From a virus (lineage: Duplodnaviria > Caudoviricetes): a stretch of 35,664 bases of DNA. The stretch lies in IMG/VR virus record IMGVR_UViG_3300020727_000045, positions 1 through 35,664 of that record. One strand, given 5' to 3'. Under the pieces are notes generated by a model, which ran no database searches, was not told the DNA's origin, and saw nothing but the letters and a program-made list of their open reading frames with translations. How positions within the stretch are numbered: position 1 is the first letter of the stretch; every line of letters starts with the position of its first letter. Made by a program: the position numbers and the translations under genes. This document shows positions 13,524 through 24,171 of the stretch, piece by piece.

Positions 13524-15386
13524 TTATGTCGTGAGTGCCTGAATTTGAGCGTTGGTTAATGCGGTTGGGTAATATGAAATCTTTTTAATGCGACCATTTA
13601 AATACAAACCAGAACTATCCCCTCCAATATTCATTTGTGATAACGATGAAGGTAATATTGCACTTGCAGTTACAACAGTTCCACCATTAACAACTGCTGC
13701 GTAACTATTTACCGCATAGCTACCCGCTTCTTTTGCTCCAGTAGCCCATGTCCCGCCCGATGGAGTTAAAGATACTACTTGAGATCCACTTGCAAAAACT
13801 CTAAAATACCCATTCCCCGCTTGAGATAATCTAATAAAGTTACTTGTTGAACCACTATTAATATCTATTGCAGTAGAATTTGAAGATGATGAACTAAATT
13901 CACTATATAAAGTGCCTTGACTTGCATTAAACCAACTAGAGAAATTCGTTCCTGTCATTTGTGCTACATCCGCAGCCCTTGTTACTTGTGCTGAAGTAGT
14001 GGCTATATACGAGGTAGGAAATGCGAGGGCTTCTAGTTGTGCTCCCCAAATGTAGATGCCTGAATAGCCATTACCTGTGTAAGAATCTACACCATTTGAA
14101 GCACCTGTCGCAGGCACAGAACCAATATAAACTCCTGGCTTAGCATTTCCTGAAGCACTAGCTGTTGCAGTTATTGAAAAACGCCACCATCCATTGCCTA
14201 AATTGGTAGAAGTTGTTACCAATGCACTTGAATTTTTTTGAACAGTTCCATCAATTAAAGAAAATTGAACTCCATTGCCTAACCATCCATTTCCAATATC
14301 ACCTGACAAAGTTATATAATTTCTAGTCCACGCTTTTGCTTCTACCGACCATGTGTATTGTTGTCCTGATGTAATAGTTTGTGAGCCATAATTACCGCAC
14401 CCATGACTATTGGTTACAGTTGTATCTTCTATTAATAATTGTGCAGTCTGTGTACCATCAGGTGCTATACCAGCAGTTTGTGTTATTGAACTTCTTATTT
14501 TAACCCAAGTTGAATCGCTAAATAGTTGTGAATAAGTCAGTAAATTCGTACTACTCTGCTCAATCAATAAACCTAAACTTTCCCCTGTTGTAGGATTAAA
14601 ATCAAATCTAGGTGCGTTAATTGGTGCTGTTAGTAGTTGAGGGATGTAGTTCGTTATTGCTGTGGTAGTTGTAGCGTTGTAGGCAGTTACGGATGTGCGT
14701 TGTTCTAACTGAGCACCCCAAATGTAAATTGATTCTGTTCCAACAGCAGTCCAAGTGTAGTTTCCATAAGGTCCAATACTAGGAGTTCCTGTGTTAGATA
14801 ATTGAATAAAACCGCCACCCCCAGTTGTTGATGAACCACCACTTTGAGTGACGGTAATACTTACTCTGTAAAATCCATTTGCTTGAGCAACAATAGAGGT
14901 TGCGTTAACAGTTGCAGAACTACCATTTTGAGTTGATGTTATTGTTCCACCAATTAAATCTACTACTACAGCACCCCATGAACCTACTCCTGAATTGCCA
15001 TAAATTTTTAAATATGCATATTGATTGGTTAAATATTTTAAAGATGCACTAAAAGTATATGTAATAGCATTTGTTACAGGTGTATACTCACCAATGTAAG
15101 GATTAACTGCTACACCTGCTGGAGTTAAAAAAGTTGATGCTGTTGTTGTTCCGTCAGGTGCAGTTGTAGTGTTTCCTGTAATAGTTGAATTAGTTTGCCA
15201 AATCCCATTAGTAAATGTTTGCGAATAAGTAAGTAAATTTTGCTCTGCCAATACACTCGTTTTACCATCATAATATGGTGCAGTCGTTGACCTAGAAAAA
15301 GTAACACGAGGATCAAGTTGTTGACTGTTAGCAAAATCAAGTAAAATTGATGGTTTTATAGCGGGAAAGTTAGCAGTTATTGACAT
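13524..15386 (-). CDS. fibre/spike protein with tandem carbohydrate-binding-like modules
   Basis: 620 aa, T/S/G-rich; two NLLTYSQ...APDGT...IYIWGAQLE modules; TSYIATT...VTRAAD. Confidence 0.8.
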   Translation of the reverse strand: MSITANFPAIKPSILLDFANSQQLDPRVTFSRSTTAPYYDGKTSVLAEQNLLTYSQTFTNGIWQTNSTITGNTTTAPDGTTTASTFLTPAGVAVNPYIGEYTPVTNAITYTFSASLKYLTNQYAYLKIYGNSGVGSWGAVVVDLIGGTITSTQNGSSATVNATSIVAQANGFYRVSITVTQSGGSSTTGGGGFIQLSNTGTPSIGPYGNYTWTAVGTESIYIWGAQLEQRTSVTAYNATTTTAITNYIPQLLTAPINAPRFDFNPTTGESLGLLIEQSSTNLLTYSQLFSDSTWVKIRSSITQTAGIAPDGTQTAQLLIEDTTVTNSHGCGNYGSQTITSGQQYTWSVEAKAWTRNYITLSGDIGNGWLGNGVQFSLIDGTVQKNSSALVTTSTNLGNGWWRFSITATASASGNAKPGVYIGSVPATGASNGVDSYTGNGYSGIYIWGAQLEALAFPTSYIATTSAQVTRAADVAQMTGTNFSSWFNASQGTLYSEFSSSSSNSTAIDINSGSTSNFIRLSQAGNGYFRVFASGSQVVSLTPSGGTWATGAKEAGSYAVNSYAAVVNGGTVVTASAILPSSLSQMNIGGDSSGLYLNGRIKKISYYPTALTNAQIQALTT

Positions 15387-16192
15387 TGTTGTTGCTCCTT
15401 CAATCTAACAAAATAACGCTTTCTTGATTCACTCATTTTCTTTTTGCTTTCTTCAGTATATCTAAAACCTATTTTTGCTTCAGATATTTTTTTGCGTGTT
15501 TCAGGCGAATTAACTTTGCCTAAATGATTTAATCTTTGTTTTTCTTTTACTTCTGGTCTGTTTAACGCAATTTTTAAAGACGCACTTAATTTTGCTTTAG
15601 TTTCATCACTTGCTTTTCTTCCCTTGCCAGCTTCTGATATTTTTCTTTTTGTTTCATCTGTATGTTTTTTTCCAAAAGACGGATTGTCTGCACCTACATT
15701 TTTACCTTTACGATTTTCAGATATTTTTTTCTTTGTTTCTTCCGTATGTGATTTTCCGTAAAAAGGATGTAATTCACCTGTCATTTTTGCTACTCTTTTA
15801 GCAATTGTTTCAACCGATTGTTTTTTACCATAATTAGGATTATTTGCACCAATTCTTGTAGCAACATACTGCCCTATTTTTTCTTTGGATTCCTTTGTAT
15901 GGCGATACCCACTAATCCCATCACCACCATTTGTTGCATTGGTTAATTTATATCCTAATTTTTTTAATTGATTAATTCTTTCCATTTCGCAAAGCAAAGA
16001 TAATTCTTCATCAATATCTTTTGCAACATAATTTACAGTAAAGCCATTTGCTTTATTTACTACATTTTTCCAATACGCATTTCTTTTATATGGATGGTTT
16101 GCTCTATTGCCATGTCCTTTACCAACATAGAAAATCGCACCAGTATCTTTTCTGATGTGTTCATATACATAGAAATTAGTATTTATCGCCAT
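15377..16192 (-). CDS. free-standing GIY-YIG-like homing endonuclease with NUMOD3 repeats
   Basis: FYVY...FYVGKG..R, E..RI, LTN...GG, then repeated H(T/S)EETKKKIS-type motifs; start could also be 16204. Confidence 0.88.
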   Translation of the reverse strand: MAINTNFYVYEHIRKDTGAIFYVGKGHGNRANHPYKRNAYWKNVVNKANGFTVNYVAKDIDEELSLLCEMERINQLKKLGYKLTNATNGGDGISGYRHTKESKEKIGQYVATRIGANNPNYGKKQSVETIAKRVAKMTGELHPFYGKSHTEETKKKISENRKGKNVGADNPSFGKKHTDETKRKISEAGKGRKASDETKAKLSASLKIALNRPEVKEKQRLNHLGKVNSPETRKKISEAKIGFRYTEESKKKMSESRKRYFVRLKEQQQCQ

Positions 16193-16455
16193 AAAGACTT
16201 CCAATTATGAAATACGACTGCAATATAAACAATGATTAAAACAACTAATAAAAGAGGATATTCAAGCCCAATGTAATAGCCTAAAACGCCCAACAGAGCC
16301 GACTTGATTGCTAAAGCCACATCAACATTGACATATTTAAAGACAAATGCCATGACAGGATTTTGCTCATAGCCACCTTGTTTTAAGATAGTGCGAGTGG
16401 TATACCAATCAAGTAATTGGAGAATAAAAAAGGTTAGGGAGAGAATGTATATCAT
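16183..16455 (-). CDS. small membrane protein
   Basis: 90 aa hydrophobic, LD..TT...GG.E.NP motif. Confidence 0.75.
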   Translation of the reverse strand: MIYILSLTFFILQLLDWYTTRTILKQGGYEQNPVMAFVFKYVNVDVALAIKSALLGVLGYYIGLEYPLLLVVLIIVYIAVVFHNWKSLWR

Positions 16456-18071
16456 GCGATTCGATAAGTAACAAATGTGTTAGTAGCAGTTTTAACGGTC
16501 TGGAACTGTGCTGAGGTGTTGATTGCGACTGTGGCATTACCGACATAAGTATGCCCTGTTCCAGCAGTCATTGTGATTGCACCACTTGATGAGCCTGTAT
16601 TGATGACAATCCACAAGAATGAGTTATTGACCACGCTAAGACCATTTAACACTCCAGCGTCTGTTAGTGTGCCTGTGGGTAAAGTTAAAGCCACCGCACT
16701 AGCAGAGGTTACTTGCACAATGTAAGTAAGCAATTGAGCAATTGTAAGCGTTGTTGTAGCAGTTAATGCAGTAATAGTTGGTTGAATCTGATAACCACTC
16801 GTGCCAACTAAGTTTGTAGTTGAGCCACCACCAATCTGAACTGCTTTAGCATCTTGATAGGCCATTGTGCCTAAGTATTGATTCAAAGGAATTTGATTCG
16901 CACCAGTTCCCACATCTTTTTGACTAACAATGTTGTAGCCATTTTCGATAAAAGATGTAACACTTAATGCACCTGTTGATGGATTAAATGTGTAGTTTGG
17001 ATTGGTGTACTCAGTAGTTGCAGTACCTGTTTGAGCAGTAAAATAAGTAGGGTAGTAAGTGGCATTTGTCGAGTTTGTAGAGATACCAATCGTTGATGCC
17101 GATGTGCTAATTGCTGACCATACAGGAGCTCCTGCACCATTGGATTGCAAGAAGTTACCTGCTGTACCTACCGTAGAAAAAGCGTATGCAGTTCCTGTGC
17201 CATAACCCACACCACCTGCTGTTGGTGTTGCTGATGAGTTTGTACCACCATTGGCAATCGGTAATATGCCTGTTACCCCTGTTGTTAAGGGTAAGCCTGT
17301 TGAACTTGCTAAACTACCCACCAAGTTTGTGCCTGTTACAGTAGTTGCGTTTAATGATACTAATCCTGCAATAGTACCTGTAATGCCACCTAGTGCTATA
17401 GAAGTGCTACCTATTGTTACCGAGTTATTCGTTAAAGCACTATTCGGTATGTTGGTTAAAGACGCACCTGAGCCACTAAATAAGGTTGCAGTAAACTTTC
17501 CTGTTGATGGCTGATATTGTAGTTTAGTAGAGGAAGTTTCAACAATATTGGTCGAGCCAGATGTTGCACTATAAAATAAAGGGTAATAAGTCGCAGTATC
17601 AGTAGTTTGATCAGAAATTGTTACTGAAGTTGCAACAGTTGACCAAGATGGTGCTGATGTGCCATTACTTAATAAGAATTGCCCAGTAGATCCTGCTGCT
17701 AAATAGGCAGTTGAGCCAATAGCATTTTGGTAAACAATCTGCCCAGCACCACCACCACTTAAATTATTAGCAGTATTAGCAGTTCCATTAAGTGTGCCAA
17801 AGAATGTAGGAGCAGAAAATACCCCTGTGCCTGGATTCCATGTCAAACTTGGTGAGGCAATGGCTAGACCTGTTACTTGCCCACTTGTTGCACTTGTAAA
17901 CGTAGGATAAAGCGTTGCATTAACATTTGTGTTAACAATTCCAATCGATTCAGTCGCAGTAATTACAAATGGTTGACCTTGGCCGATAAAGGTATTAAAC
18001 GTGCCATCAAGGTTAAAGTATGCTTGAACTGGCAGTATATTTTGATCTACTGTTAAAGCCGGGCCGGGCAT
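16452..18071 (-). CDS. tail fibre-like structural protein
   Basis: 539 aa, T/G/S-rich, three (N/T)AT(L/Y)YP repeats and GQFLLSNG..APSW-type motifs. Confidence 0.78.
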   Translation of the reverse strand: MPGPALTVDQNILPVQAYFNLDGTFNTFIGQGQPFVITATESIGIVNTNVNATLYPTFTSATSGQVTGLAIASPSLTWNPGTGVFSAPTFFGTLNGTANTANNLSGGGAGQIVYQNAIGSTAYLAAGSTGQFLLSNGTSAPSWSTVATSVTISDQTTDTATYYPLFYSATSGSTNIVETSSTKLQYQPSTGKFTATLFSGSGASLTNIPNSALTNNSVTIGSTSIALGGITGTIAGLVSLNATTVTGTNLVGSLASSTGLPLTTGVTGILPIANGGTNSSATPTAGGVGYGTGTAYAFSTVGTAGNFLQSNGAGAPVWSAISTSASTIGISTNSTNATYYPTYFTAQTGTATTEYTNPNYTFNPSTGALSVTSFIENGYNIVSQKDVGTGANQIPLNQYLGTMAYQDAKAVQIGGGSTTNLVGTSGYQIQPTITALTATTTLTIAQLLTYIVQVTSASAVALTLPTGTLTDAGVLNGLSVVNNSFLWIVINTGSSSGAITMTAGTGHTYVGNATVAINTSAQFQTVKTATNTFVTYRIA

Positions 18072-19292: not shown

Positions 19293-20817
19293 TTAAGCTG
19301 CGATACGGCAAGCGAGTTCAGGATAGAGCGGGGCCCATCCGTACAATACATCTAAACGAGTAGGAATACTGTCGTTGTTAATTGTGTATTGACGAACAAT
19401 ACGCATACTTAAACCGATTTCCTTATCAGAGGCACGACCTGCGAAATGAACACCTTCAGGGAGCTCTAAATCTGCTACTGCGAGCGAAAAAGAATTTCTA
19501 TGCATGATTATATTCTGTGGAGATACTGCACCAGTTGAATTGAACTGAGTTACCGCAGCAGAAGATGATGGTGAAGGAATCGATACGTTTTGGAACTGGC
19601 CAGCAGTAATAACCGCAGGAGATACCACAACAGAAACGCTTGAACCTGAAGCAATCGTAACAGCAGACTTAACCACAAAGTTACGGAGCTTGTTTGAACC
19701 ATACGCTTGACGATTCTGTGGGTTAACTGCGTAAACACCAGCGATCGTGAATGTATCACCGGCATTTAATACTAAGTTACCAGTATTGGCAGCAGTCAAA
19801 GTGATTGTTGAGCTTGATGCCCAGCCACTTGTTAAGAAACCAGTTGCAGTTGTAGTTGCTACAGATGCAGTCACAGTAGTTGTGCTGTTATTACCGAATA
19901 CTTGAGCCTGAACGTTTTGGTCTAATTTCCAGTTCATCCCCGCGGAATCGCGACCCATAAGTCCTTTGCGATACTGTTCGCCAATTGCTTCTTGAGGTAC
20001 GAATAAACCTTTTAAAGAATCAACAATCGTTGCAGATGTGAATGGCTCAACGATGCATGATCTGCGACCATCTCTAGGAGCACCTTCAGAATCAAGGTAA
20101 GCACCAGCAGTTAGATAAGTAATCAAACCAGTTGGAGGAGTACCAGCAACACCTACAATGTTTGCAGTATTGAGGGTAGCCATTGCCAATCCATCTCTGT
20201 CAATTTTGTTTGCAATCGCAGCGACTGCAGGCTTCAAAACTCTATCGCTGAACATATCTAAAGATAATGCTAAGTCGGTCGTTGTAAACTGTGTGTCAAC
20301 GTGGAACTGCGTTGACAAAGTAATAGGTACAGATGATTCGTTAAAATCTTCTACGTTCAGGGCTGGCCCTGTTGATCCAATAAAGCGTCCAGGTCTCATT
20401 CTGTTACTTTCAGTCTTACGACCTACTGACCATTTCTGGCGGTGCAATTTCTTCGAATCGCACTCTAAGGCTTCTTTAGTTATACCTTAGTTCAGACTAT
20501 CGCATCTACTTTCGTAGGCTTCTCACTTAGTCGTTCAGGCTGCTTTCGCTTGCCCCTTGTTACCCACTTCTGGGACTCCAAGTCAATCAGAGAAACTTTT
20601 TCGTCCGCACACCTAGTTCTTTTTACGGACGTTTACTGTGTTACCAATCTTACCACCTCAAATGCAAGATTCACAGTAAAAACTGAGGCAGGCTTTATAC
20701 CACAGCGAATTGATCGTCATAATTACGATCTACTTCAGAAGTGAATGTTAATTCGTTCTCCAAGACCATCAACGCTTCGTTGGTGATCTTAGAAATGGTT
20801 AGCAAGTTATTTGCCAT
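19293..20817 (-). CDS. major capsid protein (P22 coat-like), spliced: join(20817-20699, 20658-20625, 20396-19293), 418 aa
   Basis: AAGGAAA RBS and MANNLLTISKITNEALMVLENELTFTSEVDRNYDDQFAVV + GGKIGNTVNVR + RPGRFIG...RLDVLYGW; the joined N-terminus reads as a typical P22-coat sequence. Confidence 0.92.
20397..20624 (-). mobile_element. group I intron, 228 nt, no ORF
   Basis: 5' exon ends in U; P1 CGUCCGU/GCGGACG; P10 CUAGGUGU/AGACCUGG; P7 GACUA (20532-20528)/UAGUC (20499-20495); P3, P5, P6, P8, P9 stems, several with GNRA loops; terminal G. Confidence 0.92.
20659..20698 (-). other. 40-nt core-less group I-like mini-intron (putative)
   Basis: ATAAAGCCTGCCTCAGTTTTTACTGTGAATCTTGCATTTG; follows U, ends in G, introduces a stop and frameshift; exact removal restores V-G-G-K-I-G. 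Confidence 0.75.
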
Positions 20818-20847
20818 GATATTTCCTTTATAAAATAAATTAAGTTT

Positions 20848-21699
20848 TTACCTAATCCTTTTAGCTTGTCTCATTGCTTTGTACTGCGAGTAAGTCATCT
20901 TATCTGTATCAGTAATAATGGCTTGCTCACTTGTACCAGCTTTGATTGGACTAATCGGGGCAGGTGCTTTGGACTTCTGGGCAACAGATTTAACAGGTTC
21001 AGTCTTTTCAAACTTTGCCTCCAATTTACCTATTTCTCTTAAAGCAGAACTTAGACTTGATTTAGATATTTTCTCTGCTAGTTCTTGGTTTTCAGCCAAA
21101 TGATAAAGAATTCTAGGACCAACATCTGATTCTAAAATTGCATCTCTCACTTGATCGCTTACCACAACATCAGAGGAAGCTACCATATCATCAAAATCAG
21201 GCAATTCAGATTTAGTTGCTTCAAGTTTCTTGTTCCAAGTATCAATAACTTTGGCACGTTCCGCTTGTTTCATTTTTTCTACATCTTCTTGCCTTGCTCT
21301 CATTACAGCGTTTTCAGCACTCCAATCAGCCAATGCTTCAGCGTATTCAAACGCATCAACAAATTGATCTGGTCTTGGTTTCTCATCTCTGCTCTGCTCT
21401 TTAGGAACAGCCTGTGACTTGATTGCCTTTAACTCTTGCTCTAATTCTTGTGTTCTGATTCTTGCTTGTTCAGCTTCCTGTTTAGCAAGGTCACGTTGCT
21501 TTGTGACTTCATCAAAACGCATCTTTACTTTAGGTTTTGGTTCTTCTGTTGCTTTTTCCTCGTTCTCGACAACTGGTTCACTCTGTTCAATTTCAGCAAC
21601 TGGCTCTGTTTCTACAGCCTCAGTCGGAGAATCTTCAGCTAAACCTAATTTATTTGCGTAAAACTCGGCACTATTTTCACTTGTTAAAACATTGGCCAT
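20848..21699 (-). CDS. capsid scaffolding protein
   Basis: acidic coiled-coil, between portal and coat; GPRILYHLA and KAPAPISPI motifs, basic C-terminus. Confidence 0.85.
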   Translation of the reverse strand: MANVLTSENSAEFYANKLGLAEDSPTEAVETEPVAEIEQSEPVVENEEKATEEPKPKVKMRFDEVTKQRDLAKQEAEQARIRTQELEQELKAIKSQAVPKEQSRDEKPRPDQFVDAFEYAEALADWSAENAVMRARQEDVEKMKQAERAKVIDTWNKKLEATKSELPDFDDMVASSDVVVSDQVRDAILESDVGPRILYHLAENQELAEKISKSSLSSALREIGKLEAKFEKTEPVKSVAQKSKAPAPISPIKAGTSEQAIITDTDKMTYSQYKAMRQAKRIR

Positions 21700-21779: not shown

Positions 21780-21932
21780 TTAAATTTCACATAAAGAAAA
21801 CTTATACTTATTTAATAAATAAATGCGAATTCCTTGCTTATGCCAACATTCAGCTGTTTCAGGAATTGCATATATTTTTCCTATACAAATATAAATTTGA
21901 ATTAAATATTTAATTTGAAAATTAAAATACAT
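21780..21932 (-). CDS. hypothetical protein (50 aa)
   Basis: manually translated MYFNFQIKYL...; TAATG coupling; very AT-rich. Confidence 0.4.
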   Translation of the reverse strand: MYFNFQIKYLIQIYICIGKIYAIPETAECWHKQGIRIYLLNKYKFSLCEI

Positions 21933-22111
21933 TACTTTTTATTTTGTTTTTCATTTAAATCATGCAATGCTGTGTCTACAGCTTGTTTTTTTCCCATTAT
22001 AGATTTTAAACGCTCAAATTCAGGATGGGTTTTAGCTCTTTCATGCTGTTCTTTATTGTATTTTTTTGCTAATTCTTTAGATATATAATCTGCGTGATTT
22101 AATTCTTTCAT
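21932..22111 (-). CDS. hypothetical protein (59 aa)
   Basis: MKELNHADYISKELAKKYN...; ATGA overlap with the portal stop. Confidence 0.6.
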   Translation of the reverse strand: MKELNHADYISKELAKKYNKEQHERAKTHPEFERLKSIMGKKQAVDTALHDLNEKQNKK

Positions 22112-24171
22112 ATGGCCCTTTCTGTAGTTTCTGCTGACGCTAAATGTGCCTGTTGATGATCCATTCTTGCTAATAAAATTGCTATTTCCGCTTTCATACG
22201 TTCAATTTCTTTTTGTGTTTCTGTCTTAACTATGGTGTCATGTGCCATTGTTTCAACACGCATTTGCGTATCGTGTCCCTTAGTTGTCTGACGCATGAGT
22301 TCGCGTTTAGTTTCGTTATCTTGTTTGACTTGCTCAATGTCTTGACGTTGTTGAATCATCATTTGAGCTTGTTGTAACTGTTGAGTTAATTGTTGAACTT
22401 GTGCTTCACCTTGCTTGAGCTTCATTTGAATTGCAGGTGGTATATCTGACATATCATCAATCTGAGCTAATGGGTTATTAATTGCCATACGATCAGCAAT
22501 AACATCAGCACCAGGGAAGTCCATATTTCTGACAAGTAAATCACCAGCAACTTGTACAAGTGATGGCTCTGCTTGGAATAATGCCATCATCGCTTCTACT
22601 GATTCTTGACGCTTCGAGTTATAGCCTGGTCCTGTATCCATCACAATGTCATATTCACCTACGCTCATGTCGTTCAAAATACGCTCAATGCCAGATTCAT
22701 CCATCTTGCGTTCATTAATCGTCATAATCTCAGGCTTACCATCATCGCCAATGATTCGCATGGCTCTTTCGGTGTCATAAATATGAGGGATTAAATCAAG
22801 GATTACTCTACCAACTTGCCTGATACTACGAGTTAAATTGTCGTAATAGTGCATATTGGTCATGTCAGCTTGCATCTGCTGACCTTGGATTGCTTTACCG
22901 GATTGAATGCCTTGCGGTAACTGATTTGGATCGTAAATGCCAATAACTGCTTGTAAATCTAAATTCATTGACTGCATTGCAGCCATTACTCCAGTAGGGG
23001 GTTGTTCTGGTGATTGTCTTACTGGTGGTGGAGCTGGTCTGCCATCAATGTCAGTCTGCTTGTAACGTAAATAAGGCTTACTCGCATTGTTCGCTTCAGC
23101 CCATTCTTGTTCATGGCCTTCATCTTGTCCTTCAGCCAATATCCATTTTGCTTTGGGTGCAAGTGCGACAGTTTCAGTCAGAGCAGTTGACCAATAGTTA
23201 TACATCCTTTGCGGATCTTTGGCCATGCGAACTAAACCAAAACGCTTATGTTTGCCTTGAACTATGGTGCTTTGACCATATACAGGGATAATTGGAATAT
23301 ATCGACCTGCCCATTCGCCCTCTTCAAGGATTTGCATCGCTGTCAATTTGCACCATTTAATCTTTTTACGGACTGTTGTGCGTTGATTAATAACTTCAAC
23401 ACCTAATTTTTCCATTAACTTTTCATTAACTTCATCAGCGTAGATGCTTGAGCCATCTGATAACTGCATTAACTCAACGGATTCTCTGACTGAATACCAA
23501 TACTCAGCAATTCTGATTTCTTCTTTTTGTACCCAATCACCCATCACATCGCCAGTACCACGACTAACAAAACCTTGGTCTATTTCAGCATCAGGATACA
23601 TTGCACTAAATGATTTCTTACTAATAAGCGTTGTAATTAAACAACGCTCTGCATCTGAGCCATCAGCCATAATGGAATTGGGATCAAAATACACAGTAAA
23701 AGGATTTTCAATTGGTCGAATATAAATTTCTTGGTCAAAGCTATCATCCTTCACATAATCGGTATGGACTCGGATATATCCCCAGCCCATGCGAACTGCA
23801 TAATCCACAGCATTAATATAAGCCTGGTCAGCGTCAGACTGCAATTCAATATGTCGGCACATCCCAGTAATGATTTGTGCCTGTTTTTCATCGGTTTGCG
23901 TATTCATGCCATGCGCTTTAATTCTAGGTCTTTGCTCTCGAATCTGATTCACAATCTGCCGGCAATACGCATCGACTTTATTAATGGTCAAGCATGGTCT
24001 GGCTTCAAGTAATCGACTGTTCTGCACATCAACAGGCCATTGATCACCATTGCTAAAACGCACATCATCTAAGGCTTCAGCACGATTATTGGAGTCTACA
24101 TCATTCACTTGACGTAAAAACTCCATTGCTTGATAGATTCTGTCATCTTGCTCAATGATTTCTTCGGCCAT
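22108..24171 (-). CDS. portal protein (P22-like)
   Basis: 687 aa; GDQWP, RPCLTINK, KDPQRMYNYW, SGKAI motifs, Q-rich C-terminal barrel. Confidence 0.93.
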   Translation of the reverse strand: MAEEIIEQDDRIYQAMEFLRQVNDVDSNNRAEALDDVRFSNGDQWPVDVQNSRLLEARPCLTINKVDAYCRQIVNQIREQRPRIKAHGMNTQTDEKQAQIITGMCRHIELQSDADQAYINAVDYAVRMGWGYIRVHTDYVKDDSFDQEIYIRPIENPFTVYFDPNSIMADGSDAERCLITTLISKKSFSAMYPDAEIDQGFVSRGTGDVMGDWVQKEEIRIAEYWYSVRESVELMQLSDGSSIYADEVNEKLMEKLGVEVINQRTTVRKKIKWCKLTAMQILEEGEWAGRYIPIIPVYGQSTIVQGKHKRFGLVRMAKDPQRMYNYWSTALTETVALAPKAKWILAEGQDEGHEQEWAEANNASKPYLRYKQTDIDGRPAPPPVRQSPEQPPTGVMAAMQSMNLDLQAVIGIYDPNQLPQGIQSGKAIQGQQMQADMTNMHYYDNLTRSIRQVGRVILDLIPHIYDTERAMRIIGDDGKPEIMTINERKMDESGIERILNDMSVGEYDIVMDTGPGYNSKRQESVEAMMALFQAEPSLVQVAGDLLVRNMDFPGADVIADRMAINNPLAQIDDMSDIPPAIQMKLKQGEAQVQQLTQQLQQAQMMIQQRQDIEQVKQDNETKRELMRQTTKGHDTQMRVETMAHDTIVKTETQKEIERMKAEIAILLARMDHQQAHLASAETTERAI

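Follow-up and report, generated by a model that had tools for sequence, protein, structure and literature searches.

How is a phage coat protein made from a gene whose reading frame, after 40 codons, reads GUA UAA and stops immediately if a 40-nt insert is kept in the message? The gene lies on the minus strand of a 35,664-nt virus record, rated complete, which we analyzed over its whole length (the window). Besides the P22-type coat protein, the window encodes a scaffold protein, a portal and a terminase, and freshwater metagenomes contain DNA near-identical to it. The coat gene is split by the 40-nt insert at 20659-20698 and by a 228-nt intron at 20397-20624 (Table 1). When 20698-20659 and 20624-20397 were taken out by a script, the joined exons gave a coat protein of 418 residues, which aligns unbroken across both sites in 79 of its 80 best IMG/VR relatives; the 80th has both inserts. 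Skipping exon 2 in the scripted joining resulted in a frameshift.

Table 1. The split coat gene and the RNA elements assigned to it (positions in the window).
Feature	Position	Strand	Remarks
Coat exon 1	20699..20817	-	119 nt; last 8 nt are the exon strand of P1a
Core-less mini-intron	20659..20698	-	40 nt; in-frame UAA 20697-20695; final G
Mini-intron P10 guide	20690..20693	-	partner is the exon 2 start, 20658-20655; one pair changes two-sidedly in 7/19 rows
Mini-intron P1a guide	20682..20689	-	G20689 with the 3′-terminal U of exon 1; cells 100% paired, two two-sided pairs
Mini-intron tether arm P2x	20664..20680	-	antisense to exon 2
Coat exon 2	20625..20658	-	34 nt; P10 partner; P2x partners 20653-20646 and 20640-20632; P1b exon strand 20631-20625
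228-nt group I-type intron, no ORF	20397..20624	-	P10b strand 20616-20609; P1b guide 20608-20602
228-nt intron core	P3 20596-20590/20524-20518; P7 20534-20528/20499-20494	-	full group I-type core
Coat exon 3	19293..20396	-	P22 coat protein family; PF11651, phrog_283

The frame stays closed for every removal of 1-37 nt in that phase. Five different 40-nt removals open it and two of these yield conserved residues, but only 20698-20659 both follows a U and ends in G. This is the unit that an earlier, sequence-only reading had delimited, together with a P1 of 7 out of 8 pairs carrying a U-G at the cut and a P10 of 4 pairs in register, and both the coordinates and the two helices were borne out when checked against the sequence. 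Nor is the insert an assembly error, since the 5′ 21 nt of its junction recur in 19 IMG/VR contigs and thus in independent assemblies.

At the level of contigs, the 40-nt insert is removed precisely from RNA. The region was found in 6 RNA and 14 DNA runs, of which 5 RNA and 3 DNA runs were compared; the RNA evidence consists of assembled contigs, not reads. The exact junctions predicted for both inserts are present in contigs of all five lake RNA runs, whereas none of the three DNA runs contains them. Four RNA runs (X8, X10, X15 and X17) each have one contig, at a depth of 12.5-15.2, in which the 228 and the 40 nt are absent and the 34-nt exon between them is present. In the fifth (X18) both joints occur at a depth of 71.2, compared with zero for both in the DNA runs X9, X13 and X7. 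The placement of the joints is ambiguous by one base only, which corresponds to a microhomology of 1 nt at each, and sliding them by that base yields exactly the ends given above. Among the joints listed for X8, X10, X15 and X17 there was none that skips exon 2 and none that fuses the full intron to the mini-intron. The lack of insert-retaining contigs in the RNA runs was not counted as evidence because assemblers discard rare paths.

Could the same contigs have arisen without any splicing, from an insert-free strain or a jump of the reverse transcriptase, the insert of the window being bypassed in translation or marking dead genomes? RNA libraries can contain DNA, there are 13 differences in exon 3 between the RNA contigs and the window, and insert-free relatives do exist (those with other junction codons occur in the DNA runs X13 and X7). 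However, the exact joints are missing from three out of three DNA runs, and DNA contigs reach into the 228-nt intron in both X13 (19915-20550) and X9 (19629-20550). The X13 contig has 13 other letters as well, the same count as the RNA contigs over 19915-20395; given this match and a replacement of 21790-22202 common to X9, X13 and X18, RNA and DNA appear to come from the same strain. No DNA contig across the 40-nt insert was found among the pieces listed for X9, X13 and X7. On the other side of the joint, across 20698-21300, the contigs of X8, X10, X15 and X17 show zero differences from the window. A reverse-transcriptase jump between the flanking 6-nt repeats would remove 47 nt instead of 40. 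In translational bypass of the T4 gene 60 type, take-off and landing codons match and the gap is retained in the mRNA; here the landing codon would be UGA in 19 out of 19 inserts, and the gap is missing from the RNA contigs. Insert lengths that cover all three phases and compensatory changes that show selection (both described below) also speak against this explanation, which we consider highly improbable.

Two local differences between the window and the run contigs are of note. The RNA-run contigs carry 12 substitutions clustered at 20279-20324, just downstream of the full intron, which is possibly a recombined patch. The replaced stretch at 21790-22202, 411 nt that are largely A+T-rich and lie between the end of the portal gene and the scaffold gene, is swapped for 83 other letters in X9, X13 and X18.

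The 3′ half of the insert contains an arm that the sequence-only reading had missed. It pairs with exon 2 in two segments, 20680-20672 with 20640-20632 and 20671-20664 with 20653-20646, and 20600-20708 as a whole adopts a fold in which P1a, the arm helix and P1b directly adjoin one another (z = -3.75; 0 of 200 shuffles were as stable). A pattern for the full intron at the coat site returned 60 loci, of which 47 have an insert, in 23 distinct contexts; the other 13 are, by eye, 8 coat genes with the full intron alone and 5 other genes. Inserts in the 23 contexts are 32, 33, 34, 40 or 41 nt long, which puts them in all three phases, and each of them introduces a stop if kept. Nineteen contexts were aligned, the other four being repeats of inserts already included. 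In this alignment 97.9% of the cells in P1a, P10 and the arm are paired, as opposed to 32-46% in slid controls, and six pairs change on both sides, two in P1a, one in P10 and three in the arm (P2x). The covariation score, for rows that are related, was reached by 0 of 500 shuffles. Codon changes in exon 2 are followed by the arm. As compensatory changes occur, the pairings of the mini-intron appear to be under selection. The sequence-only reading had proposed a search for covarying P1 and P10 in the inserts of homologous capsid genes, and such covariation is present in the 19 distinct coat rows, all of which have the U-G at the 5′ splice site. P1b does not vary among the aligned coat rows and therefore provides no information on its covariation.

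Of the features of a group I intron, the mini-intron has the 5′ splice helix with its U-G, the guide for P10 and the terminal G. The P3-P9 core and the G-binding site in P7 are absent: as had been argued from its length, there is no room for P3-P9, the 32-41 nt being wholly assigned to guides and arm. Since it has no such core, we do not file the mini-intron as a self-splicing group I intron. A further proposal, that the end of the mini-intron could form a P9.0-like pairing with the neighboring intron, fared less uniformly. The end (UUG) is invariant in the coat family (19 out of 19 distinct rows), where it can pair with the GA after P7 of the full intron, but it occurs in only 13 of 57 members of the phrog_1357-type family described below, and the pairing was dropped as a general rule.

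A complete catalytic core is present in the neighbor. The element that starts 34 nt downstream had been described as a full group I intron, and its P3/P7 pseudoknot, P4, P6 and G-site are all there. In 192 distinct related cores, P3 pairs in 179-192 out of 192, with several pair types, and the first P7 pair is found in 192 out of 192; the bulged base covaries (A-C-U in 177, G-A-C in 11). Rfam gave no match to either intron, and its group I model did not match the 228-nt intron at the gathering threshold or at E values of up to 10. Because the core is conserved across 192 relatives, we regard this miss as a limit of the model. By our estimate, the core motif of this intron occurs in about 580 IMG/VR stretches. 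The 228-nt element would be classified as a group I-type intron; it is missing from the RNA contigs, and protein-free self-splicing is predicted for it.

The two introns go together, in agreement with what the sequence-only reading had expected. Patterns for the mini-intron alone found 37 coat loci on 31 distinct contigs; a full core follows in 28 of these, and the remaining 3 break off within the first part of the full intron. The nearest full intron is always downstream and close, and among the loci examined we saw no mini-intron that lacked a downstream intron or frame break. The 23 coat-site cores that accompany a mini-intron form a single clade (100/100), separate from the 5 that do not. 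Hence, the coat family has one origin, and its counts are not independent.

The arrangement recurs outside the coat family, in capsid and portal-like genes unrelated to it. A structure search upstream of related cores gave 30 matches in 104 contexts, 8 of them outside this family (scores of at least 20 were obtained in 0 of 1030 shuffles and of at least 18 in 2). In metagenomes it gave 8 matches in 85 contexts, namely 6 coat loci, L471 and L399; the score of L399, 16, is within the range of the shuffles, and this locus was dropped. Removing the predicted pieces restores the frame of a second capsid type (L471, 37 nt), of a portal-like gene identified by reading its peptide (L181, 35 nt) and of a third capsid-like gene (L167, 38 and 39 nt; L159, 71 nt, the latter by eye). 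In L167:800-1260 the gene ends in a tandem pair of mini-plus-full modules, with exons of 16, 24 and 30 nt. For L563 no place was found in the capsid family, and a protein search of G001 and G002 gave no match.

A large fourth family weakly matches the phrog_1357 major head protein. It accounts for 74 of 118 pattern loci, 57 of them distinct, with mini-introns of 28-41 nt. P1 of another intron follows after 26, 48, 50 or 86 nt in 56 of the 57, and one is cut off. In 48 of the 56, the arm pairs over at least 7 bases and this pairing stops 7-9 nt short of the next 5′ splice site, compared with 3 of 56 when the arm is slid. In the 50- and 86-nt classes, an arm pairs with the site belonging to it and not with nearer ones; fewer than 7 bases are paired in 8 of 37 arms of the 26-nt class. 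For a count of co-occurrence in this family, 80 loci were chosen by protein alone, the query being one of the 18 with a mini-intron, and 68 of them could be parsed. All 18 loci with a mini-intron have a downstream break, versus 15 of the 50 without, the other 35 having neither (Fisher p = 8e-8, treating related loci as independent). The 12 unparsed loci comprise 2 with a mini-intron followed by a break, 5 that are intact at the site and 5 for which no site was obtained.

GenBank phages contained no copy of the mini-intron (two records match, in the core only) and the genome collection gave a single match, contig L637 of a Methylococcaceae MAG. Hence, no cultured carrier was found. L637:641-900 contains a mini-intron and the start of a full intron, and P7 is not seen in the stretch inspected; this contig may be a misjoined or broken copy.

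Taken together, the most likely explanation, to which we assign a probability of about 0.8, is that the 40-nt mini-intron is excised by the core of the downstream 228-nt intron while tethered to it on the same RNA. Through the pairing of the arm with the final segment of exon 2, P1a, the arm helix and P1b come to abut within a few bases of the core, and the neighbor's core would dock the P1a and P1b helices in turn. The same arm, as predicted from the sequences, favors this tethered arrangement over free action in trans, in which a diffusing excised intron, the 228-nt one or another, removes the mini-intron and the arm merely helps local folding. Engineered group I ribozymes do excise internal segments in trans, also in E. 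coli, according to the accounts in PMC2532722 and PMC4094466. However, free action has no need of an arm whose partner tracks the next full intron over three exon lengths, or of a nearest intron that is always downstream and close, and we regard it as unlikely.

Removal independent of the neighbor appears less likely still. Such removal could be carried out by the mini-intron alone, as claimed for PaSSU, or by a protein enzyme of the host or the phage. For PaSSU (67 nt, with P1, P7, P10 and a 3′-exon helix), splicing in vitro is reported in PMC3160393, and the degenerate introns of lichens are removed by unknown factors according to 10.1101/2021.05.01.442275. The present mini-introns differ in that their 28-41 nt are consumed by the loop, guides, arm and a short linker, which leaves no P7, and neither the co-occurrence nor the re-targeting of the arm would be explained. 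The mini-intron also differs from a substrate of the bulge-helix-bulge type in that its two cuts fall on the same side of the guide.

In which order would one core remove both introns? We think it more likely, at about 55:45, that the full intron goes first. It would splice itself, and the excised ribozyme would remain paired to the joined exon 2-exon 3 via P1b plus P10b. P1a would then dock, and the 5′ site would be cut by the ribozyme's own terminal G or by free GTP, whereupon exon 1 would attack behind the final G of the mini-intron. Attack by a terminal G is the mechanism described for engineered trans excision-splicing in PMC2532722. In the phrog_1357-type family the duplex between the guide and the joined exons has a mean energy of -25.2 kcal/mol in introns with a mini-intron (44) and -16.8 kcal/mol in those without (9; p = 0.0007), a comparison that is confounded by site and descent and in which several mini-associated introns are ordinary, at -16 to -18 kcal/mol. 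The strong duplexes often consist of a long distal clamp on exon 3 and weak pairing beside the junction. At the coat site, P10b has 5-7 of 8 pairs with a +2 mismatch and a longer distal pairing in all 14 introns with a mini-intron, versus 4 straight pairs in both introns without one. Such strong distal pairing of the guide suits a ribozyme that holds its product and yet can undock, and this is why we lean toward the full intron being first. The ordinary duplexes of many mini-associated introns, and the lack of a fused-intron joint among those listed for X8, X10, X15 and X17, speak against it.

The opposite order, with the same tethered core, is somewhat less likely: P1a would dock first, free GTP would cut, the mini-intron would leave and the full intron would follow. 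Before any splicing, the precursor already forms the three abutting helices, and they resemble the P1-P2-P2.1 layout that larger group I introns have; the UUG end of the coat family could, in addition, pair with the GA after P7. However, the direct connection of P1b to P3 should make its docking easy. Moreover, exon 1 could in this order be joined to exon 3, whose start pairs with the P10 guide in 3 of 4 positions, so that the 34-nt exon would be lost; no such joint is among those listed. The longer distal pairing to exon 3 is also left unexplained.

As to its origin, a mini-intron could be what is left of a full intron, once situated immediately upstream of a second one, that lost its core. 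Core loss fits because an ORF-bearing full intron occupies the site of the phrog_1357-type mini-intron in a distant capsid gene (L723:2614-3600) and, as judged by eye, shares P1 and P10 with it. No full-length counterpart was found at codon 41 of the coat gene. On balance it seems probable that non-autonomous group I 'satellite' introns form a widespread class, in which one natural core performs two complete splicings per mRNA, is clamped to its product and removes the core-less intron with its own end, and in which the arm re-targets to the next full intron. The class would have arisen several times in phage virion genes, and it would extend down to a possible 11-nt intron with an exon guide. 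This smallest candidate was seen in L718 and L720 (the same contigs as L153 and L219), where 11 nt are inserted at coat codons 35-36, after a U and ending in G. In these two contigs the coat frame is interrupted by the insert, a full intron follows at codon 48, and the protein is restored once the 11 nt are removed. The insert itself contains no guide, but pairing is possible between exon 2 and the last bases of exon 1, with a U-G at the cut.

Group I introns are taught as single-use elements, each with its own catalyst. Phage mRNAs are known to carry self-splicing ones (Bastillevirinae, PMC11878797), and PMC10136302 describes tandem introns with short exons in Twort orf142 and Coxiella 23S. 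The present system shares with phage group I introns, as they are described in these sources, the 5′ splice helix with U-G, P10 and the terminal G, as well as two introns flanking an exon of 23-34 nt and, in the 228-nt neighbor, a full core. Unlike here, each intron in the Twort and Coxiella tandems is described as having its own core, and exon skipping occurs; in our case one intron is core-less and arm-tethered, and the RNA contigs retain the short exon. The PaSSU-type introns of fungal rDNA (63-75 nt; PMC3160393) are similarly tiny and are described with a P1 with G-U, a P10 and a middle helix with the 3′ exon. In the same account they have a putative P7, a terminal U, an rRNA site and reported self-splicing, with no adjacent full intron described, whereas the phage mini-introns have 28-71 nt, no P7, a terminal G, and a location in phage mRNA upstream of a full intron.

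Engineered trans excision-splicing ribozymes and spliceozymes, as described in PMC2532722 and PMC4094466, use a core to excise a foreign segment between U and G via P1 and P10, with the terminal G as the nucleophile that we propose here. The engineered ribozymes act in trans and carry the guide themselves, whereas the present system would be natural, its guide being part of the substrate and its core tethered. Twintrons and tandem complex introns resemble it in being composite and removed in a coupled manner, and group III introns in being core-reduced relatives, of group II in their case (PMC8393795). The modules of twintrons are presented there as nested or adjacent, with no coding exon between them and with their own cores or protein help; a module that borrows a neighbor's group I core is not described in that account. 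In the literature that we searched (few subscription journals; supplements, whose intron tables could list such inserts, were outside the scope) we found no natural core-less intron spliced by a neighboring group I core, the only analogues being engineered systems and fungal degenerate introns.

If the proposed mechanism is correct, one natural RNA enzyme removes two introns, and a catalyst is naturally separated from its intron substrate, for which the group I counterpart has so far been found, within the literature searched, only in engineered RNAs. It would serve as a living model for how self-splicing gives way to assisted splicing. The system is compact, with about 400 nt, and provides a naturally evolved template for ribozymes meant to cut out short segments. 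Frame breaks of 28-71 nt in phage capsid and portal genes could then be functional, although it is easy to take them for assembly errors or pseudogenes. Rfam misses a large family of small phage introns.

Several observations concern the full introns. Related small introns occur in the coat family at further sites, near residues 90, 109, 206, 360 and 386 (L101, L110, L112, L113, L115, L144, L164 and L722). L722 corresponds to 16877-17095 of MW202674.1, a GenBank record in which the intron is unannotated and the coat gene is given as two CDS. The full introns at the 26-nt site (L568, L534, L553, L557 and others) have a P1 loop of 35-50 nt, one part of which is antisense to exon 3 and another a conserved stretch containing UCUUUGA; the idea that this loop is a third intron was ruled out by its being antisense to exon 3. 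In L534, L541, L584, L560, L553, L557, L545 and L589 the P6 region is enlarged by insertions of several hundred bases, and by eye these insertions look like an endonuclease ORF on the opposite strand. Finally, the window contains a free-standing NUMOD3 homing-endonuclease-like gene at 15377-16204 on the minus strand, which might mobilize the ORF-less coat introns; contigs of runs X9 and X18 jump over about 15358-16176, the region of this gene.
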